Assembly: GCA_038087875.1 (NCBI GenBank)
Contig: CM075991.1
Coordinates: 12,526,001-12,590,000, forward strand
DNA from: Malacoraja senta
Taxonomy: Eukaryota
DNA: 64,000 bases
Direction of reading: 5' to 3'
Shown here: one piece after another, positions 7,814 to 52,167 of the stretch
Numbering within the stretch: the first letter of the stretch is position 1
Layout of the letters: every line of letters starts with the position of its first letter
Translations under genes and position numbers: made by a program
The notes under the pieces: generated by a model
Database searches by the model: none
The model's input: only the letters and a program-made list of their open reading frames with translations
What the model was told of the DNA's origin: nothing

Positions 7814-8538
7814 TGCTGTCTTGCCGGGCAGTGTACGCTATGATGCTGCTGTATCCAGTTGTTGACAAGAAGGCACACATTTATGGTGCCTGGCCCAAGG
7901 GATGGCATGTGGTGGTCTTTCCAACCAGAATGAGTGAGGGGTTTGTAGGTTAATTGTCCCTAGTGTGTAGGGTAGAGCTAGTGTACGAGGTGATCGCTGG
8001 TCGATGCAGATTCGATGGGTCGAAGGGCCTGTTTCCACAATGTATCTCTAGAATAAACTAAACGTTATGCTCTGTGGCAACAATAACAAGGCAAAGGAGG
8101 AAGCGGGTGTTAAAACAGTTGGAATAATGGGGGCACAAGGTGGAAATGTTCCTCATGAGATCAGGAAAAGGCAAGACAAGAACAATTAAAGGGAACATGA
8201 ATAAAGGAATTGGAGCAAATGATCTGTTTAGTCTGTTCTGCCCAAAGGGTGTTCACGCTAACACAGTTAAGTCAAATAAATAAATAAGTTTACTCGAACA
8301 AAATTAGTTTAAAACAATACAAAGTGGTGGAGTTACAGGATTCCAACGTCATGTGCACAGACAGACAGACAATGATAGGTGTAGAGGGGAGGGGGAGTAC
8401 CTCACTTCAGTCCCACCAACCATGCAGGGCACTGCAACAACCTCAAGGCAGGTTAACTGTAGGAATGTAGTCACAAATACAGATGCGGTTAATACACGCA
8501 GCGCTGCAGTAACTCGGGTCAAATGAAGGAATGTGTTT

Positions 8539-8672
8539 AAGAAGGAACTGCAGATGCTGGAAAATCAAAAGTAGATATAAAGGCTGGAGAAACTCAGCGG
8601 GTGAGGCAGCATCTATGGAGCGAAGGAAATATGTGACGTTGTGGGTCGAGACCCTTCTTCAGACTTCTTTGT
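8539..8672 (-). mobile_element. Penelope-like 3'-terminal fragment with degenerate hammerhead core
   Basis: Family terminus ...catctgcagttccttcttaaac; flanking direct repeat AGGAATGTGTTT at 8527-8538 and 8673-8684. Confidence 0.7.
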
Positions 8673-10804
8673 AGGAATGTGTTTGCTCAGTTTATCACAA
8701 CAGGAACAGTAGAACTGGTAAATGTGGACTGCTTTCATCACACCCACTCCAGGCAAGGATTGTATCCTAACGGAGAAGCATGTCACACAATGCTTAATTC
8801 ACTTAAACGGAGGGGCAGCACAATTACTGGTCAGATGTGCAGCTCCAAACAGTTAAAGTTTTTGATTTGCTGGATTCAGGGATGTCAGGCTCAGCTTAGC
8901 ATTTTTCACATTCAAGGTGCAGAGGAAAAGGTTTAATAGGAATCTGAGGGGTAGTTTTTCCACACAGAGGGTAGTGGGTGTATGGAACAAACTGCCAGAG
9001 GAGCTAGTTGAGGCTAGGACAGGCTTGGAGGGATATGGAGCAAGCGCAGGCAGGCGGGACATGTTGGGCTGAAGGGCCTGTTTCTACACTGTATCTCTCT
9101 AGACAATGATGCAGGCCCTTTGGCCCAACTTGTCCAAACTAACAAAGATGCCCCGTTTGCCAGTAAACCGTTTCTGTCCATGTACCTGTCTGGAGATGAA
9201 GGATCTGGCTCCAATGAAGGCGAGTGATTCAGTCAGGACTATGGCAGCTGATGGGACAGTGGGGGAGCATGGGGATGACCTGTCTGCGAGAGGCAGGCAT
9301 GCTGTCCCACACTACACACTAGTGACTGCGCTTCAAGGTAATTCATTAGCTGTCGAGCACTGGCATCTCAGTGGGCGGCATGGTGGTGCAGTGGTAGAGC
9401 CAATAAACCAAACTAAAAAAAACAGTGGAATTAGATCAACCTTCTTTCTGGATTCATCATTTGGAAGTGGACCCTTTGGCCCATTGAGTCCATGCCATCA
9501 ACCACCCATTTACACCCTTCCTACTCATTTCCTTTCTATTGTAGTGCAGCGGTAGAACTGCTGCCTCAGCACTGGAGATCCGGGTTCAATCCAGACTACG
9601 GGTGCGGTCTGTATGGAGTTTGTACGTTCTCCCAGTGACCACGTAGGTTTTCTCCGGGTACTCCAATTTACGCTCACATTTCAAATTGTCCCTGTTGTGT
9701 GGGATAGTGCTAGTGTACGGGGTGTTTGTCAGCGCAAACCAGCATCAACAGGCAACACAAAATGCTGGAGTAACTCCGCAGGCCAGGCAGCATGTTTAGA
9801 ATGGTTAGGTGACGTTTTGGGTCGGGACCCTTCCTCAGAACACACAGGCAGTTAGAATACCAAAGGAGTAATTCAAGTCGGGCAGCATCAATGGAGGCAG
9901 AGCGATGGTCGACATTTCAGGTGCAGAGTCCTGATGCAGGGTCTCGACCCAAAACATCACCTCTGCCATCACAGATGCTGCTTGACCCGCTGAGTTCCTC
10001 CAGTAGTTTGTTTGTCGCTCCAGATTCCAGCATCTGCAGTCTTGTCTCGGCAACTAGAAAGGCAGGTGCATCAAATGACAGGGAAAGCTCCTTAAATCTC
10101 TGCTGGAGAGCTGGTAATCAAACATTGTGATGTAGTGCATTGAATCATGAGCTGAATTAAATACCTTAGCTGTGTGAAGCATAGATCCCAGGGCAAGAGC
10201 CCCATCTCCTGGTGGGAAGTCAGTAATGTCATTAACTTGTGTAAGAAGGAACTGCAGATGCTGGTTTTAACCAAAGATAGGCACAAAAAGCTGGAGTAAC
10301 TCAGCGGGACAGGCAGCATCTCTGGAGAGAAGGAATAGGTCTCGGCCTGAAATGTCACTCAATCCTTCTCCCAGAGATGCTGCCTGGTCCTGCTGTGTTA
10401 CTCCAGCTTTGTATGTCTATGCCATTAACATGGTCAATACAGCAGGCACTGATGCAAGGTGTGTATAGAGTAGCGTTAATGTGCGGGGATCGCTGGTCGG
10501 TGCGGACTCGGTGGGCTGAAGGACTGTATCTTGCAACAAGTTTGGCATTTTATCCTAATCTGTTCTCCAGGTCAGGCTGTTCTCCTACTCCTTGCCCGTT
10601 TTAATAGCAACGTGCCCGCTATTAACCTGTGTCCCACCACCCTGAAGCCAGCAATAGAAGGCAAATAACCGGCAATACAGCAGGGAGAGGTCAGTCAGAT
10701 GCCACGTGCAGCGATATAGCCAGAAGGCACGTGGGCCTTAAAACACCTACCGCAGACAACTGCACCAACTTCTTCAGTGGAGAAGTCGTTACAAAATAAC
10801 AGGC

Positions 10805-11544: not shown

Positions 11545-11639
11545 CTGTAAAGGAACCGTCAGACATGGGTGGTGGGCGGGAGTGTCAAGGGAGGTTAATG
11601 GTCGCAAGCACTGGGAACTGAACAGTGATAATTTTACCC

Positions 11640-11852
11640 CGAAGATAGATACAAAACGCTGAAGTAACTCAGCGGGACAGGCAGCATCTCTGGAGAGAAG
11701 AAATGGGTGACGTTTTGGGTCGAGACCCTTCTTCAGACTTAAGGGATGGGTCTCAACCCAAAAAGTCACCATTCCTTCTCTCCAGAGATGCTGCCTGACC
11801 CGCTGAGTTACTCCAGCTTTTTGTGTCTATCTTCGGTTTAAACCAGCATTTG
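11640..11852. mobile_element. Palindromic Penelope-derived element
   Basis: Arms gaagatagatacaaaacgctgaagtaactcagcggg... and ...cccgctgagttactccagctttttgtgtctatcttc are reverse complements; centre at the hammerhead region. Confidence 0.75.
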
Positions 11853-12448
11853 CACAATTTTACTCTGTTCAGTTTAACATGCCTGTTAACACTCCCTCTT
11901 CTCCCCTCTCCCATCAGGCAAGAGGTACAGATGTGTGAAAACCCACACCTCCAGATTCAGGGGCAGTTTCATCTTGTCACCAACGAGTTTTGTTTAGCCC
12001 AGAATCTGCAGTCTCATGTCCAGAGTTAAACGGCTGCCTTTACTTCTTTAAAGTATCTTACAAATATTTCTGCTTACACCATAGTGCTCTGCATTGCCAA
12101 ATAATTGTAGAAGATGTTACATGTTGACTCTCAGTACGTCAGTGATGCTCCACTGGTCAGCAGTGGTTAAGGCACTATTGAGCCTGAAGTTCACACAGTG
12201 AGGCTAGTGCACCATGAAAGCCATGGCTGCAGCACAGACTGCAACAGTAGGGCTTTCACTTCTCTCCCCCACCCCACAGGCACACTCCTAGCTAGAGGAA
12301 ACAAGCTTGATGACTCAACTAGACTTGCCACTGCTGGCTACTGAGAGCCTGCTGTGTGTGTGCGCTGATAGAGAGAGATAGCTCACCCCTGCCTCACCAG
12401 ACTGTGACAAACGACCAGAGAGTTTCTCACTACAGTGGCCAGTTTGGT

Positions 12449-23112: not shown

Positions 23113-23591
23113 TTGACTTGTTTTGGGTGTCTGGTATTCACTAGACGTTTTCAACAAGATTGGGTGTATTTGATTCCTAAATCTTCAGTGCAGTCAAGTT
23201 TATTGTCCTATGCACAAGCATGGTGAGGTGCAGGTACAATGTAAATCTTGCTTAGAGCAGCGTGACAGGCACATAGACTCAGACACACAAGAATGTAAAT
23301 TACACCAGACTGGAAAAAAGACATTTGGTACAAAACACAATTAGAAAATAAATCCATGACAGGGCAAGACTCTTCTGCTACCAAGATAGGATTAGGAGAT
23401 GTGGAAACAATGAACTGCAGATGCTGGTTAATACACAAAATGACATAAAGTGCTGGAGTAGCACAGCGAGTCAGGCAACAAACCTGAAGAACATTGATAG
23501 ATAACGGGATTACGGTTGTGTAGAAGAGAAGACACAAAGTGCTGGAGTAACTCAGTGTGTCATGCAGCATCTCTGGAGAAAAGGTCTGGGT

Positions 23592-24860: not shown

Positions 24861-25364
24861 TGTCCCGCTTTAACACTCACACGGCAGAAAACACACGTCA
24901 GGAGGCGAGTGAGTTTACAAGTTGGGAGGTCATGTTGTAGTTATATAAATAACCTCCATCAAGGACGCAGAGTTATTATCCTAAAATGGTGGCCTGCTTC
25001 TGCAAATACTGCCGAAACTTGAGCACTTCTTAATTTCGTTTTTTTTAAATTTGCTTTTGATGCGTTTTAATAACATCTTTTCTCGGGATACAGGAGGAGC
25101 ACCAAGGAGCTGCTAGAGGTTATGGACGAGTGCAATCCGAGCACAGAGTGTAACCATGGGCCACCGATTTCTCTGGTACTCCAGATGTCCACAGCTGCAG
25201 ATTACACTACATGAAAGGTGGCGGAATCGGACAATGTGGAGACTTGGAAGTAATATAGGAAGGTGAATATTGAAGTGTGATCTATTGGACGTGCTACACG
25301 TTCAGATTGTAAATTATATTTACCCCATAAGCTAGTTGTAGAGACAACTACTAGGATTAGCAAG

Positions 25365-25540
25365 GAAAGAACTGCAGGTGCTGGTTTAAATTGAAGGTAG
25401 ACACAAAATGCTGGAGTAACTCAGCGGGTCAGGCAGCATCTCTGGAGGGAAGGAATGGGTGACGTTTCGGGTCAAGACACCCATTCCTTCTCTCCAGAGA
25501 TGCTGCCTGCCCGCTGAGTTACTCCAGCCTTTTGTGTTTA
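25365..25540. mobile_element. Palindromic Penelope-derived element
   Basis: Inverted arms meeting at gacgtttcgggtcaagac|acccattcc. Confidence 0.7.
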
Positions 25541-25884
25541 CTAGGGTTAGCATTGACTGGGCGGGCATTGAAGTGGATTTAGTGGAGAATTTTGGGCCAA
25601 GCTTGGGTTTTAAGTGGGAGAAAAGGAGAGAATAGTGAAGTTCAGAGTGTTTCTAAAGATATTTATAATAATTCCGTAAAGATTCTACTTTGCAGACTTA
25701 CTCTGGCTCGATCCTTCCCTCTTGGTCTGATGCCTTTTATGTCTGCTATAGGAAAACTTCAGAGCTCTGTGGACTGCGTGCTTCATAATACCAATTGATG
25801 CAATACTCACATGCTCTGTAACAGTTACACAAATATTCAGCAGTAAGGACAGTTAACTTTGCAGCAAAGGAAACAGAAATATCA

Positions 25885-26260
25885 AAGATAGACCCAAAAA
25901 GCTGGAGTAACTCAGCAGGACAGGCAGCATCTCTGGAGAGAACGAATGGGTGACGTTTCAGGGTTGAGACCCTTCTTCAGACTGGTTAGGGATAAGGGAA
26001 ATGAGAGTTATAGACCAAATATCATAGAAGGCTCTAGTATCTTTGACATAGAACATGCTCCAGTATCTTTGATTTAGACGGTGATGTGGAGAGATAAAGA
26101 ACAATGAATGAAAGATATGCACAAAAGTTACAATGATAAAGGAAACGGGCCACTGTGAGGTGTTCCTAGGGTGAAAATGAGACGGTAGTGTGACTTGGGG
26201 GGGGGGGGGGGGGGGGGCATAGAGAGAGGAAATGTCAGAGCTACCCGGTGAGAGAAATAT
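25885..26260 (-). mobile_element. Penelope-like 3' UTR fragment
   Basis: Same terminus and hammerhead region plus an extended UTR similar in layout to 22860-23050. Confidence 0.6.
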
Positions 26261-27719
26261 ACAGAAATATCAGTTTTAAATGAACAATTTGTGCTTTCAG
26301 TCAATCTGAAGAACGATGATGATAGGATTTCAGTAATTGAATTCTACGGGTTTTGAGGGGAAATAGTTGCCATATCCACCCTGATTACTGACAAATTGTT
26401 GTTACATAAGGCCATTGCTAAGAGATAATAGATTAGTACCATCTTCATCAGTATGTGCTTTCAGTTGGAGGTAATTTGGAATTCTAGTATCCCACCTCCC
26501 TGCTTACTATTCCTTACTGCATTAGAGAACAGATGGGTTCAGTGCAAATGTTTGTAACTTATTGTACTTGTGCTGGGCTGTAGGCCAGATCACTCAATGA
26601 CCATGAAGAAGGTTCTCGACCATAAACTTTACTTCTTCATGTTCTCCAGGGATGTTGCCCGATCAGCTGAGTTACTCCAGCACTTTGTGTCCCTTTGTGT
26701 ATTACCCAGCATCTGCAGTTCTTTGTTTCTACAATTATCCTCCAATGGCAAGGGAAGGTTATAGAGAAATGAAGGGCATATCAAAGCTCTGAATTGTTTG
26801 TTAAGATCAAGCAATAGTAAGTAGTATTTAATAACCCTAATCCTAATAAAGACATTTATTAGGAGATAATATCAATTTAATGTAGACTAAGATTTCAAAA
26901 AACTAACAGCACTTTAACAATGCCAAGTTTGAACACAGTAATTTTTAGCAACAAACGAAATGACAATTTTACATAATTTAAATATGCTGGGAGGATAAAA
27001 ATCTGAGTTATGTTCATTTATTTATCTCCCTTTTTTCTGCTTAAGGTGATGGTCCCTGTGCATGATGATCACAATCCAGTGATTTACTGGACAGCGCACC
27101 TGAATTGGAACCAGCTGTGATCCTTCACACTGTTTACTGTCACTAGTTGACTGTATTACAACAATATCTACACTGGAAAGCATTCTAGTAAGTATTACTA
27201 CTGGTTTCAGATTGGAGTGGTAGCACTGATTACTGTAGTAATATTTCTATTACTTCAGCTGGGAATTCATTGATTCCGATGCTGTTTGGCTGAAGGATTT
27301 GGGATGTGCTGTTTTACCCTGTATCCAATCTATTTCACATCTAGACTTGCAGGCTCACTTTGTGTCAGGTTCTGACTCTCCACCCTGGCACTTTTTCTGC
27401 CTGCTACATTAATGTTCTCATCAACAATGTTTGCAGTCTCACTTCATCCAATGGATAGGCTGCATGTTGTGTTTGGGAGCACAGTAATTGTTACCTGATG
27501 AATTGCTGCTTCCTGTTTACATTGAAGACTAATGACAAGCTCCATTTTAATTAACAATCAGTTTGCATATCCAAGCACTGGTGTGGAAGTATAAAATGTG
27601 TTTACCTTCAAAACACAACCCCACAAGGCCTCAGAAGAGGGATTAAAATTAATTAATTTGGGGATGATACTAATGGATGTTGAGTGTTCTTATTTAGAAA
27701 TGTTGGATAATGAACTAGA

Positions 27720-27929
27720 AAGGAACTGCAGATGCTGGTTTAAACTGAAGGTAGACACAAAATGCTGGAGTAACTCAGCGGGTCAGGCAGCATCTCTGGA
27801 GAGAAGGAATGGGTGACGTTTTGGGTCGAGACCCTTCTTCAGACGGGTCTCGACCCGAAACGCCGCCCATTCTTTCTCTCCATAGACGCTGCCTCACCCG
27901 CTAAGTTACTCCAGCATTTTGTGTCTACT
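27720..27929. mobile_element. Palindromic Penelope-derived element
   Basis: Inverted arms; centre cttcttcagac|gggtctcgacccgaaac. Confidence 0.75.
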
Positions 27930-28427: not shown

Positions 28428-28615
28428 GTGTTTAAGAAGGAACTGCAGATGCTGGAAAATTGAAGGTAGACAAAAGTGCTGGAGAAACTCAGCGGGTGCG
28501 GCAGCATCTATGGAGCGAAGTCTGAGGAATGGTTTTCGGCCCGAAACGTTGCCTATTTCCTTCGCTCCATAGATGTTGCTGCACCCGCTGAGTTCCTCCA
28601 GCACTTTTGTCTACC
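28428..28615. mobile_element. Palindromic Penelope-derived element (UUCG-loop subfamily)
   Basis: gtagacaaaagtgctggagaaactcagcgggtgc... / ...gcacccgctgagttcctccagcacttttgtctac. Confidence 0.75.
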
Positions 28616-28797
28616 TATTATTCTGAGATGGTTATTTGTATTGGAAAATTTTCGCGGTGGGGGGGTATAAAATGCATGTACATGTAAGGGGATTTCAATA
28701 TTTTGGGCCACAGCTTTTCCTTCCAATGTAAGGGGAGTGAAGCGATCAGCAGGAATGAGGGCATCCTTGACTCCCAATATTGGAACTGACACTGCTT

Positions 28798-29009
28798 ATG
28801 TAGGAAGGAACTGCAGATGCTGGTTTAAACCAAAGATAGACACAAAATGCTGGAGTAACTCAGAGGGTCAGACAGCATCTCTGGAGAAAAGGAAAAGGTG
28901 ATGTTTCGGGTCGAGACTGAATAAGGGTCTCGACCAGAAACGTCACCTATTTATTTTCTCCAGGGTGCTGTCTGTCCCGCTGAGTTACTCCACCTTTTTG
29001 TGTCTGTCT
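28798..29009. mobile_element. Palindromic Penelope-derived element with 13-bp TSD
   Basis: Inverted arms; ACTGACACTGCTT at 28785-28797 and 29010-29022. Confidence 0.8.
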
Positions 29010-30204
29010 ACTGACACTGCTTCACTGGATGTCTAAATGATCTGTGCCTCTGTATTCATTTCTATTATTTTTAAAAAGGGCTTAAAGGGCACCACTGGAA
29101 AGATGAAAATTAAATTGTTGTCATCCAAAAAACAAGGTTTTAAAGATGATGAAAGGAGGCAAGGGCTGCATTTCAATATGCACCATTTTTTAAACTGGCA
29201 ATATTACGAAAATAATGATTTAGTAGTAATTATTTCCTATTACTATTTACAGCATCAAGGAACCAAGATCGTTCTGCAGTAATTCTGACAATATTTGCTG
29301 CCACACAGTGGATTCTGCCTGGTGTCAGTCACACATCTGGCAGCTGAGGATGAATGGGTGAACTGGCTGTTTGGTAGCAGAGCGCGTTGGAGCCTTGGAA
29401 ACGTTGTTTAATCATCCACTCCTTTGTTTATGTCTCAAATTCTGCTTAGTTTTTCTCCACTGTGATGAAGCCAGACTCAATAAGTTAGCCACAAAATGCT
29501 GGAGTAATTCAGCGGGTGAGGCAACATCTCCGGAGAGAAGGAATGGGCGACATTTCGGGTCGAGACCCTTCTTCAGAGTTAGTTAGTTAATTTAGTGCTA
29601 TGAAGAAATAAAATGTGACTTTATTGTTGAACAAAGATACACTATCACTCTTATGCATCATTTAGTTCCATGCATATGCCCTCTCAACCATGTAAATGGA
29701 CAGCCAAACCTGTGTGTGAAATATCTTTGGATGTGGGAACTGTGACAGTCATCTGTGTCTGGATGCAGCCAAGGTGGGAAAGACTTTATGGTTCAGTATA
29801 GTAGTTACATACTTGCAGAATATATACATTTGCATCCAAACAATAGTTTGTGCAGGATATGATAACTATGTTATTAAAACTAAGAATGTCATGTTCTCAT
29901 GAACAATATCAATTGCTTCTGAAAACGCACCTTTAGTTTGCATATTTGTAATGAACAAACTGCTCCTGAAACTGGGACTGTTTTCCCTGGAACAAAAGTG
30001 GCAAAGGGGTGAATTTATAAAGTTTATAAAAACAAATATCGCTTTCTTATTAAAGTTCTGGTCAAAATTAACTTTGCATCTGTATTTCTTGCAGTTGGCC
30101 ACATTAGAGACTTTAACAGACAAATTTGCACAGAACTCTCTTATGACTAAACCAACAGGCAGCAACGACTGGTGGTGGTGGTTTGGAAGGTAGTTGGTGG
30201 GTGA

Positions 30205-30362
30205 TAGACACAAGCTGGAGTAACTCAGCGGGACAGGCAACATCTCTGGAGAGAAGGAATGGGTGACGTTTCGGGTCCAGACCCTTCTTCAGTCTGAAGG
30301 GTTACTCCAGCATTTTGTATCTAACTTCGATTTAAAGCAGCATCTGCAGTTCTTTCCTACAG
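30205..30362. mobile_element. Palindromic Penelope-derived element; intact hammerhead core on - strand at 30265-30292
   Basis: CTGAAGA-AGGGTCTGGACCC-GAAACGTC on the minus strand. Confidence 0.7.
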
Positions 30363-31954: not shown

Positions 31955-33535
31955 GAGTCATGAGTGTTTTATTGTCATATGTCCCGGACGGGACAATTAA
32001 ATTCTTACTTGCTGCAGCACAACAGAATATGTGAATATGTAAACATTTTATATAACGGGAAAAAAAAAGAAAAAGTTCAATAAATAACAAATATAGTGCA
32101 AATAACAAATAATAATATAGTCTTTTGCAGTTCAGAGCTCAGAGCTTATTCGTTGTTTAATAGCCTGATGGCTGTGGGGAAGAAACGGTTCCTGAACCTG
32201 GACATTACAGTTTTCAAGCTCCTGTACCTTCTTCCTGATGGCAGTGGTGAGATGCGTGTGTGGCCAGGGTGGTGTTGGTCCTTGATGATTTTGGCTTTTT
32301 GAGGCAGCGACTACGATAGATCCCTTCGATGGTGGGGAGGTCAAAGCCGGTGATGGACTGGGCAGTGGTCATAACTTATTGTAGTCTTTTTCGCTCCTGG
32401 ACTTTCAAGTTGCCGAACCAGGCCACGATGCAACCAGTCCGAATGCTCTCTACCGTGCACCTGTAGAAGTGTAGGAGAATCCTCTTCAACATGCGAATCT
32501 CCGTAATCTTCTCAGGAAGTAGAGTCGCTGATGTGCCTGCTTTACAATTGCATCGGTGTGCTGGGTCTAGGAAAGATCTTCTGATATATGCACGCCCAGG
32601 AATTTGAAGTTATTGACCCTCTCCACCATCGTCCCGTTGATATAAACAGGATTGTGGGTCCCTATCCTACCCCTTCCAAAGTCCACGATCAGTTCCTTAG
32701 TTTTGCTGGTATTGAGAGACAGGTTATTGTGCTGGTACCATTTGGTCAATCGGTCGATCTCACTTCTATACTCTGACTCGTCACCATCAGTGATTCGTCC
32801 CACAACAGTGGTGTCGTCGGCGAACTTGACGATGGAGTTCGCAATATGTCCGGCTACACAGTCATGAGTATAGAGTGAGTACAGCAGGGGGCTGCGCACG
32901 CAGCCTTGAGGTGCTCCTGTGCTGATTGTTATCGAGGATGACACATTTCCACCAATACGGACAGACTGTGGTCTGGATGAGGAAGTCGAGAATCCAATTG
33001 CAGAGGGATGCGCAGAGACCGAGATCCGTGAGCATGGTAACCAGCTTGGAGGGGATGATGGTATTAAACGGCAAGCTGTAGTCTATAAACAGCAGCCTGA
33101 CATAGGTGTTTTATGTCCAAGTGGTCCAATGCGGAGTGGAGAGCCATTGAAATTGCATCTACCGTTGACCTGTTGTGGCGGTATACGAACTGTAGTTGGT
33201 CGAGGTTCTTGTCGAGGCAGGAGTTGATGTGCACCATAACCAACCTCTCAAAGCACTTCATCACCACAGTGCCACAGGTCGATAGTCATTGAGGCACATC
33301 ACCTTACTCTTCTTGGGCACCGGTATTATTGATGCCCTCTTAAAGCAGGTGGGAACCTCAGACCTCAGAAGTGAGAGGTTGAAAATGTCCGTTAAAAACT
33401 CCAGCAAGTTGGTGCGCACAGGTTTTAGAACACGGCTGGGTATACCATCAGGTCCAGGCACTTTCCGAGGGTTCACCCTCCTGAAGGATCTTCTGATGTC
33501 GGCCTCTGTGACTATGACTGTAACACCGTCAGGGC
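31955..33535 (-). mobile_element. Rex1/Babar-clade LINE, 5'-truncated, degenerate RT
   Basis: Frameshifted ORF pieces: [83 protein letters not shown]; 3' tail gtcccgtccgggacatatgacaataaa. Confidence 0.9.
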
Positions 33536-33910: not shown

Positions 33911-34949
33911 ATGATCTTTTTGAGATAATAAAAATGTATTTCTTGCAAGAAACACTCTTTTGAAGAAAAACGTTAAGCCATCTCTGAGCAGTGAAATCCA
34001 GGCAGCGGTTGTGCAAATGCCCCAAGCTATTTGCAGAGCTCTCTGAGAGCTCACTGGGTGTCCAGCATGAAGCTGAGCCACAGAAACCTGAAAGGCACTG
34101 GGTGTAATGTCTGTTTGAAGATTGTACTGGGGACCTAGAATTGGGTTGAATCCAAAAGAAATCTGAAGAAGGGTCTTGACCCAAAACATCACCCATTCCT
34201 TCTGAGTTACTCCAGCATTTTGTGTCTATCTTCAATTTAAACTAGCATCTGTAGAACTTTCCTATGCATGGGTTGAATCCTAGATGGGGACAGGGAGGAA
34301 AACAAAAATCACCGTCGATCCACACTCCTGCTTACATATATTGGCCTCTACAATGGACATCGTCATGGTGCATATTGGCAAGGTCATTGGACCTATTCCA
34401 TGTTTCCATATAAATTATCCCAAATGTGAGTCTTATATTAATGTTGGATTGCACCTATTGAAATGTTCCCAAACACAAAGGAAGTTTTTACAGAAAAAGC
34501 ACTCAAGTATACAAAAGTGATCATAATCAGTTAAATGCTGCATTTACAACTGAATTAATTCAGTATCGACGATTACCAGATCTTACAAACCACAATTCAT
34601 GACAGTATCATTTGAATGAGGGACATTCCCATTAATAAGTAATTTAGGGCACATTGGCAACATTTTTTTTTTACATTTCATGCAGGACTGGGCAAATAAA
34701 TTAACAATGAAAAATGTTTTGCACTGTTAAGAGAAAACCGTTGTGACTCAGCAGCAAATATATTTTAGGAAGTGATGTTCCCCGCGAAGGTCATAAAATA
34801 TCAGATCATTTCAAGGAAACAGAAAGAACTTGAGGTGTAAACATTAGTGCGGTGACGTGCACATACCAGGCTGGTTCAGGCGTAGAAGCTGTTTATTTGG
34901 ATGGTATGTTCCATGGAGATAAGACAACACACGGATCCCTTTGGATTTC

Positions 34950-35123
34950 GTGTAGGAAAGAACTGCAGATGCTGGTTTAAATCAAAGGTAGACACAAAAT
35001 GCTGAAGTAACTCAGTAGGACAGGCAGCATCTCAGGAGAGCAGTCTGAAGATGGGTCACCCATTCCTTCTCTCCAGAGATGCTGCCTGTCCCGCTGAGTT
35101 ACTGCAGCATTTTGTGTCTACCT
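34950..35123. mobile_element. Palindromic Penelope-derived element with 14-bp TSD
   Basis: TCCCTTTGGATTTC at 34936-34949 and 35124-35137; inverted arms. Confidence 0.8.
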
Positions 35124-35619
35124 TCCCTTTGGATTTCCGCAGTTCATTAATGTTAAAAGCCACTTCACTGAACAGTGAATACTCAGCAATTGTTTCCTCA
35201 TTTTGAAAAGGCAATTAGAATAATTTGTGTTTATGGAATGTGATCTTTCTCAGTTAATTAATATCTCACAGCCCCAGGCCGTTTGACTCATCCAGCATTT
35301 CCTTCCTCCCAGACTCCAGGTGCAGAATGTGGTGGACTCAGAATCACACAGCACAGAAACAGGCCCTTCAGCCCACCACATCCATGCCAGACACCAAATA
35401 CATCTGCACTCATCTGCGGCAACTTGTGGGCAACAACTAATTTAAACAAACATTCCCTATATAGACATAGGAGAAGTTTTTTTTGTCATTCCATTCAGGG
35501 TTTGCAGTAGATTACAATAGAAGACTAGAGCATGGATAGTGTTATCTTTATTTCAGAAGGGCTGCAAAGGAAATCCACAGAACTTTAGGCCAAAGAGTGG
35601 TATCTATGGTGGTAATGCC

Positions 35620-38122: not shown

Positions 38123-39648
38123 TCAGCTTCCCATGCCAATTTCTAAATATTTTTAATATATTTCTAAATATTGACTACAAATATTTAGGACAAAATTGTT
38201 GAATGATTTTCTGCGCAATACATTTTCTGTGGTTCTACTACATTAACTAAAACAGTTGCACCATTGAAACTGTATTTACTTAATGAGATCACAGATCTAT
38301 TTATAACTTGACCATCAAAAAATATTTCATCGTTCAACGAAAGTAGACACACAGTCGGTCAGTCACACACCTGCATTGTGAAAGCCCTTACATCGCACTA
38401 ACTGCTAAACTCCAGATAGATAATCAGGCACTGGCCTTTGACTCATGGGATTTGCGTGTTGTTTTACTTAATATATCTCACTCTGGAGATTGTACACTGC
38501 TCATAGAACCACAAGGGGCCTGCATCTGACAACTGTCCTCAATCACAGATTCTTTTATCTTGAGCAGTGGAATATCAGGGTGTTATACAGTCCTTGCTAT
38601 TTGCGAGAGATAGGGATCCAGACTTCCCATAGATAACAAACAAAACACAGACACCACTAAGGCCACTGGCTATGTCAGTTAACTCATAGAGCCATAGAGT
38701 GTGGAATCTAAAACTATGCTATAACAAAAATTAAACAGATATAGGAGAGACAAGAGAAACACATTATATTGCTTCTGCCGTGTTGTTGCCAAGCTTGCCT
38801 GTCTCCTCTCAAAGCCTCTTTTCATCCTCTCCCTAATTCACAATTCCACTTAGTTATGCATCATCTCCAGACTTGAAAATATAATATGTGGTCCCCTCAG
38901 CAAAAATCATTGAAAGTGAATTGATGGAGCTCAAACAACGATTCTTCTGATACCCTACTAGTTGACTACAAGAGCAGTCAGAGGGTAAGTAATCTGTGGG
39001 AATCATTACCACAAAGGGCTGTGGAGGCCAAGTCAGTGGATATTTTTAAGGCAGAGATAGACACTGTATCGAATTTCACTGTACCTTAATTGGTACACGT
39101 GACAATAAACTGACCTTTGAAACAGGTTCTTTATTAGAACGGGTGTCAAAGCTTATGGGGAGAAGGCAGGAAAATGGGATTAGGTGGCAGAGATCAGCCA
39201 TGCAGAAGGCAGAAAAGACTCGATGGGCCGAATAACCTAATTCTACCCCTATAACTTGTGAACTTGTAAAGACAGCAGATTAGTGCAAAGGTTATAGTGC
39301 AATCTGAAGTTGTATAAAGAAAATATTGAAGTGCCATAATTAATAATGTACTGTTTTATATTCATGCCTCTCTTCTGCCGATCAAATCATACCATACACA
39401 GTACAATCAAGCCTCGCACACGTCCGTCAAAGTTAAATAAACTATGGATACATCACCTGTACACGTGATAGGATTGGACGGCTAAATGCAGGAAAAATGA
39501 TCCCGATGTTGGGGGAGTCCAGAACCAGGGGTCATAGTTTAAGAATAAGGGATAGGCCATATAGGACTGAGATGAGGACAAACTTTTTCACCCAGAGTTG
39601 TAAATCTGTGGAATTATCTGCTACAGTAGAGACCACTGGATGTCTTGT

Positions 39649-39835
39649 GTTAAAGAAGGAACTGCAGATGCTGGAAAATCGAAGGTACACAAAAATGCTG
39701 GAGAAACTCAGCGGGTGCAGCAGCATCTATGGAGCGAAGGAAATAGGCAACGTTTCGGGCCAAAACCCTTCTTCAGACTGATAGGGGGTGGGGAGAAGAA
39801 AGGAAAAAAGGAGAGAGTTGGTTGTGGAACAGTCT
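39649..39835 (-). mobile_element. Penelope-like 3' fragment with intact hammerhead core (39749-39776) and 16-bp TSD
   Basis: CTGAAGA-AGGGTTTTGGCCC-GAAACGTT on - strand; CCACTGGATGTCTTGT at 39633-39648 and 39836-39851. Confidence 0.8.
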
Positions 39836-39904
39836 CCACTGGATGTCTTGTCTTGTCTTGTGGTCATCACTCCCGAAGAGTCCACCAGGGACTATACTGG
39901 AAGT

Positions 39905-40130: not shown

Positions 40131-40908
40131 CCATGTTTTCAAGAGAGTTAGATTTAGCTCTTAGGGCTAACGGAATCAAGAGATATGGGGAAAAAGCAGG
40201 AACGGGGTACTGATTTTGGATGATCAGCCATGATCATATTGAATGGCGGCGCTGGCTCGAAGGGCCGAATGGCCTTCTCCTGCACCTGTTTTCTATGCAA
40301 GTGTTACTACCTGGACTCATTCCATTTCCTGTTCCACCTTCATCGCAACAGCATAATTCTACAGAGGAAACTCAAGCTTATCCACATTTCCACAATATTT
40401 CTGTCATGTATTTTGAGAGCTTGCAGCGATGGCAGAACACCTTTTAATGCCACCACTATGTCTATTTTGAGTAACACGTCCAACTCCATAATATTCACCA
40501 GAATTAACGAGTGTCATTTAAACATTCATCACTGCTACCACTACGAATCACTTCTCTCATTACAAGCATGGTCAAGATTTTTTAAATAGAGATAAATTAT
40601 CTTTTTATTTACAATAAACACAGGAACCAAACTCAAGAGACAAGCACCTTACAGGCAGCTGTACTTATTGCTTTCTTAGAGACACACCACAGAATTCAAT
40701 GCTTGCTGTGGGGACAATGAAATGCAGATGCTGGAATCTTGACTAAAACACAAAGTGCTGGAGTAACTCAGCAGTCCTGATGCATCTATAGAGGCATCTT
40801 CAGATGAAGTCTGAAGGAGGGTCCCAACCTATCTATTCTTTCACTGATGCTGCCTGACCCACAGAGTTACAACAGCACATTGTGTTTTACTCAATGCATG
40901 CCATCCTT

Positions 40909-42084
40909 TTTTTTCCTTTTTTAAAATTTTATTAGAAGTTAATACAATACAAAACAATACAGTGGTACCTAATTTTAGGTGCCAACTATGTCATAACGTA
41001 ATACATTCTATGTACAACCTCTAGTTTTATGTTTTTGAAAAGGAGGTAAAAAAAAATAAAAAAATAAAAATAGAGAGAAGAAAAAGAGGAAAAATAAATA
41101 GTAGAAAATAGAAAAACGTGAAGTGTGTATATAAGAAAAGAAAAAATAGAAAGTAGAAATAGTAGAAAAAGACCCTTAAAAAAGAAATTTTCAAATCTTT
41201 GTTCGGAGATGTAAATCTATCCACGACTTGACCTGAAATCAGTAATCTTTACGGTACTGCTGCATCACATGATTCCAAAAAGTCGATGAAAGGGGACCAA
41301 CTCCTTAAGAATTGGTCATATTTATCTATTAGGCGGAGTCTCATTTCTTCAAGGTGTGCTATGTCCGTCATATTCCTAATCCACATTTTAATAGTTGGTA
41401 TAGCTGTATTTTTCCAAAATTTAAGTATCAATTTCTTTCCAATTATTAACCCATAATTAAAGAATACTTTTTGGTCTTTGTTTAAATTGATATCTTCTAC
41501 TATTATTCCAAATATAATCCATTCTGTATTAGGTTCTATTCTTGACTTGAAGAGCTTTGTAAATATATAAAATATATCGCTCCAAAATTTATTCAACTTT
41601 GTACATCCTACAAATGAATGTGTTATATTGGCATTTTGAAACAAACATTTATCGCATCTGGGAGAGACATTTGGGTATAATTTATTCAACCTCGTTTTTG
41701 AATAATATAGTCTATGTAATAATTTAAATTGAATTAAATTATGTGTGTTCATCAGATACTTTTCCCATCTATCTTTCGGGATCTTTATCATTAGTTCATG
41801 TTCCCAATCTTCTCTTAGTGCCTCTGTTGAGGATAATTCTCTATTTAATATACTATTATAAAAATATGATATTAGTTTTTGTGAATCAGCCTTAATATTC
41901 ATTGCTTCTTCTAAAGGGTCTAAAAATATAGTTTGAAATCTATGTATATATTTCTTCATAAAGTCACATATCTGTATATATTTAAAATATTGATTATCAT
42001 TCAGTTTAAATTTTAATTTTAATTGTTGAAATGATAACAATTTGCCCAGTTCATACATATCTCCTACTTTCATACATATCTCCT
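40909..42084 (-). mobile_element. L1-clade LINE, 5'-truncated, ORF2 C-terminus with poly(A) tail
   Basis: ORF 41249-42073 with LIQFKLLHRLYY and the Cys/His motif CDKC...HSFVGC; AT-rich UTR; T-rich tract at the left end. Confidence 0.88.
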
Positions 42085-43099
42085 ACAAAGTGCTGGAGTA
42101 ACTCAACAGTCCTGATGCATCTATAGAGGTATCTTCAGATGAAGTCTGAAGGAGGGTCCCAACCTATCTATTCTTTCACTGATGCTGCCTGACCCACAGA
42201 GTTACAACAGCACTTTGTGTTTTACTCAATGCATGCCATCCTTATTAAGAGAATATCTTACTAGTGCAGGTTCCAATTCCTCAGTGACCCCAGGACACAT
42301 TGCGTGTGAGGTGATTCCCATGTCCGCTCCACACAGACAATGCCTGCACTCATTGTGACCTCAGGGTTCCTCTGAGGTGCGAAGAGAATCTGAGGTGTGA
42401 CAGATTCTTGATTAGTGTCAGGGGTTATGGGGAGAAGGCCATAAAGGGCGTACCTTTAAAAAGATGAGGAGGAATTTCTTTAGCCATCGGGAGGTGAATC
42501 TATGGAATCCATTGCCACAGATGGCCGTGGAGGCCAAGTCATTGGGTATTTTTAAAGTCGAGATTGACAGATTCTTGATTGGTTCGGGTGCCAAACGCAG
42601 GAGAATGGGGTTGAGAGGGAAAGACAGATGAGCCACGATTGAATGGTGGACTAGACTCATTGGGCCAAATGGACTAATTCTGCTCCTATGACTTTGAATG
42701 CCATGTTCTCTTTGTAGCTCAAGAAGTAGTCGTACTTTACAGCAAAGTTCATAAGTCATTCGGCCCTTCAAGTTTACTCCGCTGTTTAATCATGGCTGAT
42801 CTATCTTTCCCTCTCAACCCCATTCTCCTGCCTTCTCCCCATTACCCCTGACATCCTTACTTGGTTTCTTGGTCCTTCAAAATATTCCAAATGGAATTTA
42901 AACTGGAGGTGGATCATTTAAACTGATCAAGAACCTGTCAAACTCCACCTTAAAAACAACCCATGGTTTGGCCTCCACAGTCGAGTGGGGTTTGATTGGA
43001 AACACCTGCACTTACCTAGGCAGGCGTCCTCCATGCTGGGCAGATCACAGATCACACCTCACACTGCCATCTTGAGTGTAGAGTCCTTTGTGGACTACC

Positions 43100-43950: not shown

Positions 43951-44018
43951 TCCTTGCTGGCCGCCCAGTTACCCTGGTTAGAGGCTACAAAATCCGAGTG
44001 AAACACTTGACTTGTTAA

Positions 44019-44232
44019 TAGACACAAAAAGCTGGAGTAAGTAAGTCAGCGGGACAGGCAGCGTTTCTGGAGAGAGGGAACGGGTGACATTTCGGGTCGA
44101 GACCCTCCTTCAGACTGACATGAAACGTCGCCCGTTCCTTTTTCTCCAGAGATGCTGCCCGTCCCGCCGAGTTACTCCAGCATTTCGTGTCTATCTTCGG
44201 TGTAAACCAGCAACTGCAGTTTCCTTCCTGCA
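44019..44232. mobile_element. Palindromic Penelope-derived element
   Basis: Inverted arms with the family 3' terminus ...caactgcagtttccttcctgcaca. Confidence 0.75.
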
Positions 44233-44920
44233 CACTTGACATGTTGACCCTGCTCCCCTTGACAAAAGTTCCCGCTGAAACCAACGCCCTGGAAACCATT
44301 CTCCCTTTGTCAGTAAGAAGCCAATTCCGTTTCCTGCAGAAGCCTCTCACATGAGAAATCCCCTTTGCTGGGCGTGCAGTGGGATTAATAGGAACACTCC
44401 TAGATCTGAATCGGATGAAGGCTCGCCTTGCCAGTACACTTTGTAGTGCCGCCTTGCCTAACTTAGGCAATTTTCATTAAGATTCCGTTTTTAATGAAGC
44501 TTTTGTTGAATCAGAAGAACTTATAGAAGTTGTAAGTTCAGCCTTCATCCTCCTGTATTGTCGCACATATGTTCGTTAGTTGGTTCCTCTAATTTATAGC
44601 ATGGTTTCAGGGTGAAATTTATGAATAGAAGAATTACATGCAGGCCAGAAACACCAAGGAGTGAATTCTTTGGTACAATTGATTTCTTGAGGTTTTACTT
44701 TGTTTATTGTCCTTAAGATTATAGAAAAGAATGAAGTTTTTCTTTGGTGTTCAGTCCACATTGTGATCTCCACATAGTGAACTGACTACAAAATGCAGAT
44801 TGCGGAACTGTTTTGTGGAGTAGCTGCATTCAATGCACAGCAGCGGCTCGGAGCTCCCTTTTGCCTGTCACTTTTACTCTTGCTCTGTCTGACTTTCCAC
44901 ACTGTTACAGTGTGCCCTGA

Positions 44921-45125: not shown

Positions 45126-46855
45126 GCTTATTTCCTTCGCTCCATAGATGCTGCCTCACCTGCTGATTTTCTCCAGCATTTTTGTCTTTACCTTCGATAT
45201 TCCAGAATCTGCAGTTCCTTCTTAAACATACGGGACAAATGTTAATTAGTTTCAAAACTTTTAAGTTACTTTGTCCTTGTTCTCTATCCAGATAGTATAA
45301 TATATTTTCCCCTCTAACTTAGTTACCAAATAATGATTTCTGCGATTTATACTCGTGGCAACCCCAGATTCACGTGGTCAAGAGAGATATCCTTTGCCCT
45401 ACCTATTTGTTCCTTCATTCTTTACAACTTGTTTTTACTCTTTCCGAGTTCTCACAGTCCTTTGCCTGATAAACAACGTGTTTATCTTTAACCAGGATGC
45501 TGAGTGTTAATAGGACTTTCTGACGTTTCATATTTCCAATGTCAACAGCCTTTTTGTTTTATTTTCATCACCAAAGGTAGTTAACATCCCTCTGATGGGT
45601 TAACTTAATACATATCAAAAATAAGGTAGTAAATCTGCATTAGCGATGACCACTTGTGTAGTGAATTTTGTGTAATAGAATGCTACAAAGTTATTTAGAA
45701 CTCATGGTAGGAAACACTTCCCCACAGGAGTTCTGTCTGGTTCTGGAAGGCATACGTAGGCGGGTTCCGAGGGATATATTTTCACCCAGAGGAAAAAGAG
45801 GTATGAGACAGAAGTTGTGGGCTGGGTATTGTAGGATAGTGCTAGTGTATGGGGTGATTACTGGTCGGTGCGGACTCAGTGGGCCAAAAATTCACTTCAA
45901 AAATCAAATGTTTGCAACTTTGAGGAATACCCACAAGTGGAATTGCTACTGTTGGTGTCATGTCAACTAACGCATTGGAATGATCACTAAATAATGGAGA
46001 GATGAATGACGTAAGTTCTTAACCTGGCTGTGAAAGGCGGTAAATAAACCACGTCAACCAGACTGAAGAAGGGATCCAACCTAAAATGCCAGCCATGTTC
46101 TCCAGAGATGCTGCCTGACCAACTGAGTTACTCCAGCACTTTGTGTTTTATTAAGTAAACCATTACCATTTTATTCTATTAATTATTGGGTAGTGGTGTT
46201 GCTGCACATTAGTGATAAGATGAGGCATGATGCATGCTATAAAGAGATGCAAGATGATATTGATTATGAGGAAGTAGGATTTGGTCAGTTACGGTGACCT
46301 TGATTTGGTTGCTGGTATGTAAACTTGCTCGTGATGTAAGAAATTTGACACTCTTAATAAACCTCATAAACCTTTGTCCTACCCATCCCTGCCTAACCTA
46401 CGTTTAAGAAGGAACTGCAGTTGCTGGAAAATGGTAGATAAAAATGCTGGAGAAAATAGGCTATTTCCTTTGCTCCATAGATGCTGCCTCACCCGCTGAG
46501 TTTCTCCAGCATTTTTGGCTACCTGTTTTCTCTCTTTCCACACTGCCTCAAGTGTGCAGTTTTTCAGAGGTTGTTTTCTGTCTTGCAGTTCCAAGAATGT
46601 AATGGAACATGTTTAATTTCCATGCTCAGAATTTAATTGGTAAGAAGAATGTATGGAGCTGAGCTGAACACTTTGACTTGCTGCAGTCAAGATCTGTTTG
46701 GGCAGTTTCCACTTGGGCTGCTGAGGAAATTGGAATGAATAAACTGCAAGATGGGTGACCCATAAAGGAGTCCAGTTCAGAGTGAAAGTGAGGAATTCCA
46801 CTGCCAAATTTGTGAGGAGCTATCAAGGGGGGGGGGGGAGTGACAACTGTGCAAG

Positions 46856-51074: not shown

Positions 51075-52167
51075 AGGATAATACAGCATTTGCTGGTCTG
51101 TGTGGACTGAAGGGTCTGTTTTCGCGCTGTACCTCTAAACTAAATAAAGCACAGGCCAAGTAAACACAACTTTCCACAAATGTAAAAATAATAATGATTT
51201 TAATACAGTTGCTAAAACAATAAATATTGGTCAATAGTTTGCTCTTTATAATATTGTTGTGGGATTTTGTGCGTGAGGGCAGGCAGCGCATAGTTTGTGT
51301 TTTATCCAAAAGTAGGTCAGCACTTCCTCGATACTGCAATGGTGTATCAACTTGGACTGGCACGTGAATATATATTCTGTAGTGAGTGCCAGCAAATGAG
51401 CCACTGTTTCATTATCAGTTTTTGCTGGGGCCCTGCATTATTCTTCAGTATCAATGGGGAGGGAGGGAGAACATTGGACAATGGGGACCCTGTGTGGGGG
51501 GGGGGGGGGGGGGGACAAATGGAGGGGTCTGCGTGCTTTGTAACTTTGTCAGCGCAGCTATTTGTACGCAAGCAAAGAATTTCACTGTGCTTTGTCACAT
51601 GTGACAAAGTATTCCATTCCATTCCAGTATCCTCTTTTGTATTTTCCAAAAAAGTATTTTTGCCCGTGCAAGTTACTTTTTGTAGCACTTGCAATGTACT
51701 GCTTGCTGTTTTTCCTCAGGGACTTGGGATGGGTGCGAGTCTTTGTTATATTGTATGTATGTAACTGCTTCCCTGTTTAATCATTCAAATTTTTTTTTGT
51801 ATTTGCCACTTGAAGTAAGCATTGAGTATTGCATTAAATTCTTTATTTCAAGTACCTCATTTACTGTTTTGTCTCTGAATAAATCCACTCCATTTATTTT
51901 AGACCTCTACTACATTTTATTTTGGGGTCACTATCATCTTGAAGTCCCCTTTGCCAAAATCCAGTGATGTGGCTCACAGCCAAGTACTTCCTACCAAGCC
52001 ATCTATTATCATCAATTTGAGGAGACCAGCTCCACTCAATGGACATGAATATTGCAAGCATGCCTCCAAATATGCTGTTGAATTTTTAAATGTCATTTTT
52101 ACTGTACACTAATTTGTGCTGTTTTGTTTGCTTTGCAGTGGGGCTGTGGTAAAATCAGGAAGTGAAA

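Follow-up and report, generated by a model that had tools for sequence, protein, structure and literature searches.

Head-to-head palindromic stubs with a minimal hammerhead motif, very probably of PLE origin, in a 64-kb stretch of skate DNA

Textbook Penelope-like element (PLE) insertions carry an inverted, 5′-truncated copy by their 5′ end and a 30–40 bp tail that is often found at one end only (PMC8557442, PMC8969392). In Adineta, such units are flanked by duplications of 8–10 bp and display palindromes at the inverted junction, for which self-priming has been proposed (PMC3846280). How PLEs build these inverted repeats is described as an open question (PMC8557442), and new PLE insertions have a median length of 128 bp (PMC9977147). 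In vitro, the PLE protein of Anolis, a predicted dimer, cuts and extends the two strands of its target and initiates synthesis at two internal positions that delimit the tail; neither strand favored one of these positions, and initiation involved no homology (PMC11167929). Metazoan PLEs also include minimal hammerheads, and hammerhead pairs on opposite strands, 100–700 bp apart, have been noted among them (PMC4209133).

Here, we analyzed one stretch of 64,000 nucleotides of Malacoraja senta DNA (hereafter the window, 64 kb) in which short stubs of this type are dispersed. The focal locus (28785–29022) comprises a palindrome of 212 bases flanked by a 13-base duplication. Like insertion units of endonuclease-positive (EN+) PLEs, the stubs combine an inverted 5′-truncated copy in head-to-head orientation, a tail at one end, a target duplication, a terminal-repeat hammerhead, and palindromes at the junction. 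In contrast to these units, the arms are <135 nt with no coding sequence between them, the duplications are longer (an 11–13 bp core and up to 16 bp, compared to 8–10 bp in Adineta), and the density is ~1 arm/kb. In LINE-1 twin priming, both nicks prime synthesis, which yields an inverted segment with microhomology at the inner junction and a flanking duplication; the arms mostly represent different RNA stretches, whereas the arms described here overlap by 50–95 nt and have fixed start sites. In Poseidon of Anolis carolinensis (PAc), two discrete 3′ ends also bound a tail ~90–130 nt downstream of a minimal hammerhead and, as here, few copy ends lie at the hammerhead cut site; inverted copies are not treated in the available text of that study (PMC11167929). 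Animal non-LTR retrozymes are likewise non-coding, hammerhead-bearing, and PLE-derived, but they form head-to-tail arrays, whereas the arms in the window are dispersed, single or head-to-head, and flanked by duplications (bioRxiv 10.64898/2026.07.22.740005). A single head-to-tail array of hammerhead-bearing units was found here (44 bp × 3.7, in locus 63078); this hammerhead-only array, at 63203–63365 within a young pair, is reminiscent of a mini retrozyme and could form hammerhead dimers. The anatomy of the stubs is already in print (PMC8557442, PMC3846280), here in stump form, and what is added is a strict one-tail pairing, an asymmetry in arm reach, and a far-side clustering of inner ends. 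Literature searches by title and start of abstract found no two-primer account of PLE inversions and no report of this element family in sharks or skates; both are weak results, given a literature base with few subscription papers and no Repbase.

The element family and its hammerhead motif

A search seeded with window copies recovered 70 pieces covering 5,787 bases, of which 60 arms were kept and 10 weak or distant pieces dropped. Alignment of these 60 arms revealed a unit of ~133 nt, represented by two or more subfamilies (among them A and B) and by older ones. Positions are numbered from the C of the CTGAAGA box (+1), so that a hammerhead cut would follow +28. The unit starts with a minimal type I hammerhead, including CUGANGA and GAAA boxes and an NUH triplet, whose core boxes are nearly invariant in column counts (C1 22/22, G3 23/23, A4 22/23, G6 22/24, A23 and A24 30/30, U27 29/31), while G21 is kept in 18/30 with changes mostly to A. 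An extra unpaired base precedes helix II (A8 in 25/25), which is 4–5 bp long and closed by a G9–C20 pair (G10.1–C11.1) kept in 22/27; helix III is a two-base palindrome (15.2–16.2), with C25–G26 in 19/30 and CpG-type changes in nine further copies. Core boxes, extra base, G–C closing pair, and palindromic helix III are all hallmarks listed for metazoan PLE minimal hammerheads (PMC4209133), and the motif is accordingly a predicted ribozyme on sequence grounds. Helix I has 2 bp only (pairing in 17/20 and 15/15, third pair in 0/11), as in D. virilis Penelope and in contrast to the 4–5 bp of metazoan PLE hammerheads (PMC4209133). The hammerhead monomer folded no better than shuffled sequences, no Rfam hammerhead family was matched at gathering or E-value thresholds (generic hairpin and microRNA matches were sub-threshold only), and pattern scans for further copies yielded one chance match in metagenomes and none in viral contigs.

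The consensus also includes complementary words, linking +5 to +10 with +36 to +41, and +9 to +13 with +16 to +20, the latter being the two strands of helix II. In addition, a complementarity of 8 bp connects the body (+48 to +55) to the tail (+106 to +113); in the RNA, such a pairing would loop out the short-end site and may position the two start sites. Four public runs supplied contigs that were aligned to a single-arm copy (39612–39881) as reference; run X18 was classed as probably DNA. In one run, 79,910 contigs were placed on this copy, and the depth profile is confounded by subfamily divergence and unusable as copy number.

Judged from non-coding hallmarks, the stubs very probably derive from an EN+ PLE. 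These hallmarks are a hammerhead in a terminal repeat, 5′ truncation with a fixed 3′ end, an adjacent inverted 5′-truncated copy placed head-to-head, an optional tail at one end, and a target-site duplication. A prior sequence-only reading of this DNA had proposed target-primed PLE-type insertions rather than MITEs, and head-to-head pairs, one-sided tails, and duplications are indeed as in PLE units. The traits by which it would have recognized a DNA transposon are absent: there are no fixed TIRs, as the ends are asymmetric by the tail and junctions differ between loci, and 11/12 duplications are 11–16 bp long instead of a constant 2–9 bp. A MITE was rejected on the same grounds.

Neither a PLE reverse transcriptase (RT) or GIY-YIG gene nor a full-length element copy was found in the 64-kb window. 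RT fragments at 32570, 35849, and 56441 were considered as PLE candidates and rejected, and we take them to be LINE-type. The end of a reading frame at 23049–23150 (minus strand, 34 residues), ~200 nt upstream of copy 22750, looks PLE-like. It had no true match in Pfam, word-index, phmmer, or Atlas searches, and its two phmmer hits were unrelated tandem-repeat proteins and were rejected.

Table 1 Features of the focal locus, inverted pairs, and single arms in the window (positions from the first letter of the window; inner ends in element coordinates).
Feature	Position	Strand	Remark
Focal locus, left copy of 13-bp target duplication	28785..28797	+	exact repeat of 29010-29022
Focal locus, long (tailed) arm, +129 to +11	28799..28917	-	94% to window consensus
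Focal locus, 35-nt tail, +95 to +129, confined to long arm	28799..28833	-	
Focal locus, inversion junction	28914..28917		1-4 bases assignable to either arm
Focal locus, short arm, -3 to +94	28914..29009	+	86% to window consensus
Focal locus, decayed minimal hammerhead motif	28917..28946	+	NUH triplet 28942-28944; from sequence, alignment, and column counts
Focal locus, right copy of 13-bp target duplication	29010..29022	+	matches 28785-28797
Inverted pair, long/short, inner ends +29/+10	10226..10429		11-bp duplication, 1 mismatch
Inverted pair, atypical, both outer ends within tail (+104, +116)	11633..11854		
Inverted pair, long/short, +11/+28	25349..25552		14-bp duplication, 1 mismatch
Inverted pair, long/short, -2/+9	27716..27928		no visible duplication
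Inverted pair, subfamily B, long/short, +38/-3	28428..28616		decayed duplication, 13/17 bases
Inverted pair, short/long, turn +1/-1	30203..30361		long arm with internal deletion
Inverted pair, long/short, +40/-4	34936..35137		14-bp duplication
Older inverted pair, long/short	40696..40901		11-bp duplication, 1 mismatch; partial duplicate at 42085-42229
Inverted pair, short/long, -4/+21	44003..44245		14-bp duplication, 1 mismatch
Inverted pair, subfamily B, long/short, both inner ends at hammerhead cut site (+29/+31)	46402..46524		no visible duplication
Young inverted pair, subfamily B, long/short	63065..63434		16-bp duplication; 3.7 tandem 44-bp hammerhead-only units in centre
Single tailed arm starting at -3	8527..8684	-	12-bp duplication, up to 7 bases common with element end
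Single tailed arm, subfamily B, 56 nt upstream sequence	39633..39851	-	16-bp duplication; contig reference
Single short-ended arm, ~275 nt upstream pyrimidine-rich sequence	25873..26272	-	12-bp duplication, exact, 25873/26261
Single short-ended arm, upstream seems to enter last codons of reading frame	22750..23150	-	

Arm pairing, 3′ ends, and junctions

We evaluated the arrangement of adjacent arms across the 60-arm set (Table 1). Arm pairs were head-to-head in 14 cases, one of which is a duplicate of another locus, and tail-to-tail in one, while random placement (n = 2000) never yielded more than 6 head-to-head pairs. In this geometry, the 3′ ends of both arms abut the duplicated flanks. All 11 loci that the sequence-only reading had named as inverted duplications are head-to-head pairs. 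The palindromes are asymmetric, with the two arms mostly ending at different positions, and internal deletions are common in the inverted loci (30203, 34950, 46402). Arms of a pair belong to the same subfamily (site +92 is equal in 10/11): no pair mixes A and B, three are B/B, and private changes are common to both arms at 28799 (+56) and 44018 (+33). In the only tail-to-tail pair (22680–22773), two short ends point toward one another over a gap of 31 nt, and a direct repeat of 7 bp is present. Elsewhere, at 9740–10065, an older, decayed inverted pair (~9853–10040) has as its immediate neighbor a single short arm with a 7-bp repeat (9748/9844), and the duplicated part of the old locus 40714–40894 is separated from it by a LINE-type fragment (41249–42082).

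The 3′ ends of arms fall into two classes, at ~+88 to +96 (short) or ~+120 to +133 (long). Single arms (n = 20) include nine long, eight short, and three with other ends. By contrast, among 12 clear pairs, 11 combine one long and one short arm, none is long/long or short/short, and one (11633) ends within the tail on both sides; this one-tail pairing has p ~0.003 if arms chose their ends independently. Excluded from the count were 2735, whose right arm has decayed too far, the complex locus 20082, 42085 as the duplicate of 40716, and 9853, an old locus that seems to be short/long as well. The expectation that one arm would be complete and the other short held for 10/11 of the loci named beforehand but failed at 11633. 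Loose contig ends with unrelated flanks were detected at the long end (+129; X1 210, X7 373) and at the short site (X1 182, X7 167, X18 34; all among 24 listed rows), which indicates that both 3′ ends are widely used. Together with the eight single arms, these loose ends establish the short end as a real element end outside palindromes. A tandem array at 22423–22679, located inside an older arm between 12-bp repeats (22343/22680), is composed of 5.4 copies of a 40-bp unit, 98% alike and spanning +91 to +131, and looks like the result of repeated copying of the tail.

Readable target duplications (n = 12) measured 8, 11, 11, 12, 12, 12, 13, 14, 14, 14, 16, and 16 bp, and none was visible at 27716 and 46402. 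The best flanking repeat scored ≥8 for 7/15 inverted loci, compared to 1/210 cross-locus flank pairs, and no empty site was found among the 15 contig joints listed. Five direct repeats had been reported from the sequence alone, and all are present at the places and lengths then given. The accompanying idea of variable-length duplications had to be revised: the longer duplications have bases in common with the element end, and 11/12 are compatible with an 11–13 bp stagger once such shared bases are allowed. Microhomology at the 3′ end, also proposed, stood in part, as at least three bases are shared between duplication and tailed end in 4/11 cases (p ~2e-5), but none in the focal copy. Three of these four tailed ends belong to subfamily B. 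In PAc, by contrast, no homology between target and RNA is reported at the start (PMC11167929).

Next, we considered where the paired arms meet. The 13 resolvable pairs (leaving out 9853, 20082, and the duplicate 42085) provide 26 inner ends, 22 of which lie within -5 to +31. By class, 17/26 are at -5 to +11, 6/26 at +21 to +34, and 3/26 at +38 to +42, and 12/13 pairs include at least one arm ending at or before +11. Compared to a uniform distribution over -5 to +62, this clustering has p = 0.001 for -5 to +31 and a scan-corrected p = 0.0003 for -5 to +11, values to be read with the two ends per locus not being independent and the ends being partly read by eye. The turn-around points are thus mostly in or near the hammerhead and not uniformly distributed, as the sequence-only reading had it, and the single arms at 8665, 21521, 29577, and 45097, said to start just upstream of CTGAAGA, do so at -3, -2, -1, and -1, respectively. 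The cause it had suggested, RT stalling at the ribozyme, is not supported by these positions as the main one. Coming from the tail, an RT would first encounter the ribozyme at +30, and +29 would be the end of a cleaved RNA, but most inner ends are on the far side (the 17 at -5 to +11, against the six at +21 to +34). Stalls ahead of the ribozyme or run-off where it cuts therefore make up a minor class (10238, 25363, 46402). The main class is compatible with a template that starts near -3, with an RT that falls off once past the structure, or with a joining bias at self-complementary words.

Junctions vary by locus, with an overlap of 0–4 bases or a few extra bases. Among the contig rows listed, loose ends with unrelated flanks were found at -1 to -3 (X1 114, X18 34 and 15), an inverted arm starts at +5 (X1 50), and many other contigs continue upstream of the hammerhead (X1 121, X2 108). 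Joints of +11 to -3 with +39 to +42 were detected in 10/10 of the X1 and X2 rows listed; these do not distinguish inversion from tandem and were not counted as inversions. In the window, three single arms run upstream of the hammerhead, by 56 nt at 39644, by ~275 nt at 25885 (up to a 12-bp duplication), and apparently by ~300 nt at 22750. The stop near the hammerhead is therefore strong, not absolute.

In 4/4 upstream-extended copies (22853, 25984, 28379, 39780; minus strand), a pyrimidine-rich stretch and a CAG are found just before -1, an arrangement that resembles a splice acceptor. In D. virilis, the intron of Penelope (described in PMC2377424) ends at the same place, at hammerhead helix I (PMC4209133). 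A spliced template as the source of the -3 cluster gained no support from the listed loose ends, which had no exon in common (agreement 0.34–0.40).

Formation of the inverted pairs

The two arms of a pair differ in how far they reach toward the 5′ side. The short arm extends further in 7/11 pairs (10238, 28428, 28799, 34950, 40716, 44018, and 63078, the last via its tandem units), the tailed arm in two, and the arms are about level in two. The sequence-only reading had explained the inversions by a tailed cDNA that folds back or by a switch of strand; in these seven pairs, however, the focal one included, the short arm holds 5′ sequence that is absent from the tailed arm, and simple fold-back is therefore insufficient. 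We reasoned that separate priming of a cDNA by each of the two nicked strands, at one start site apiece, would account for both the arm-reach asymmetry and the fixed short end. On balance, we thus favor, as probable, a model in which both nicked target strands prime their own cDNA at the two PLE start sites and the products are joined at the hammerhead. The endonuclease would nick both strands ~11–13 bp apart, as suggested by the duplications. Reverse transcription would then begin at the far site (~+130) from one 3′-OH and at the near site (~+92) from the other, leaving a 35–40 nt tail on one arm only, possibly helped in some cases by a few-base match between target and RNA; this step is modeled on the two discrete 3′ ends and the Anolis PLE in vitro work. 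As a rule, the two cDNAs stop no more than ~40 nt from the hammerhead, with its 5′ edge as the commonest stopping point; there the RNA template may start, or the enzyme may dissociate. Joining of the cDNA ends would proceed via the short self-complementary hammerhead words, with repair filling the gaps, and a single productive nick would leave a single arm with either end.

Some observations fit this two-primer model poorly, and its sample is one 64-kb window. Arm differences at polymorphic sites would not be expected if one RNA stretch had been copied faithfully twice, the ends of locus 11633 belong to neither class, and later loss of palindrome centres could fake the 7/11 pattern. The absence of strand preference and start homology in vitro also means that strict long/short pairing and 3′ microhomology are unexplained by the Anolis study. 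The loss of centres is central to a self-priming scenario, in which a single nick would yield one cDNA that turns at the hammerhead stem and copies itself, with asymmetric centres produced by later deletions. Internal deletions are indeed common, the arms of a pair have their subfamily and some private changes in common, junctions lie at self-complementary words, and 4/11 pairs have a short arm that is nested in the long one or reaches about as far. We nonetheless consider self-priming unlikely, since it requires a second event for each of the other seven pairs and gives no cause for the stop at +88 to +96, an end used by eight single arms.

Differences between arms could instead reflect two templates. 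If two RNAs were held together by a dimer-forming hammerhead and a protein dimer copied one per nick, both cDNAs would end at the paired hammerheads, consistent with the clustering of junctions at this motif and with the focal arms differing at linked polymorphic sites. Helix III, only a palindromic CG, is of a type reported to need a second copy (PMC4209133), and insertion in vitro is independent of hammerhead cleavage (PMC11167929). This arrangement is nevertheless distinctly unlikely in our view: a single RNA with two primers explains the strict long/short pairing more easily, A/B mixed pairs are absent (although the subfamilies may differ in age), and the discordant sites combine into mosaic haplotypes, which mutable positions or conversion could produce. 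Also quite improbable is a combined scheme in which the hammerhead acts chiefly as a hub for RNA dimerisation and end joining rather than as a nuclease: it would pair two element RNAs, an asymmetric RT-endonuclease dimer would copy them from the two target nicks at the far and near sites, and the cDNAs would both terminate and be joined at the paired ribozymes; if true, it would explain the PLE tail, the inverted pseudo-LTR, and the retention of a poorly cleaving ribozyme together. Finally, a pre-formed palindromic master transposed whole, as a MITE or a hairpin RNA, would match the size of ~200 bp, the long inverted arms, and the high density, but is very improbable and largely refuted by junctions that differ among the 13 pairs, asymmetric ends, duplications of 8–16 bp instead of a fixed 2–9 bp, and single arms with the same ends and duplications. 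To choose between twin priming, as in the favored two-primer model, and fold-back, this dense family provides a natural experiment in which one-tail pairing, arm reach, and cDNA ends are countable genome-wide.

The focal locus and its setting

At the focal locus, the hammerhead is decayed, with the core box G at +6 changed and the helix II closing pair broken at +20. Its arms differ at two polymorphic sites in the alignment, while arms of two other loci differ at one site. As anticipated in the sequence-only reading, which also saw in them potential ADAR or siRNA substrates, transcripts of such loci would form long hairpins: the predicted fold of the focal transcript is one long hairpin (-138 kcal/mol, z -15.8), and transcribed stubs would form ~80-bp duplexes. 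In annotation, such stubs would be mistaken for MITEs or, given the sub-threshold Rfam microRNA matches, for microRNA hairpins.

The window is vertebrate DNA, including a phosphoglycerate-mutase-type exon near 328 and a 2-oxoglutarate dehydrogenase N-terminal exon near 52153. No host gene was identified around the focal locus in the 62/96 frames scanned. The focal locus lies 1.3 kb downstream of a match to the snoRNA SNORA77 at 27349–27486 (+), which suggests that a host transcript on the plus strand is present nearby. A rearranged copy at 20082–20200, composed of two antisense pieces and a tailed sense piece, lies within a minus-strand coding exon region near 20270–20450.
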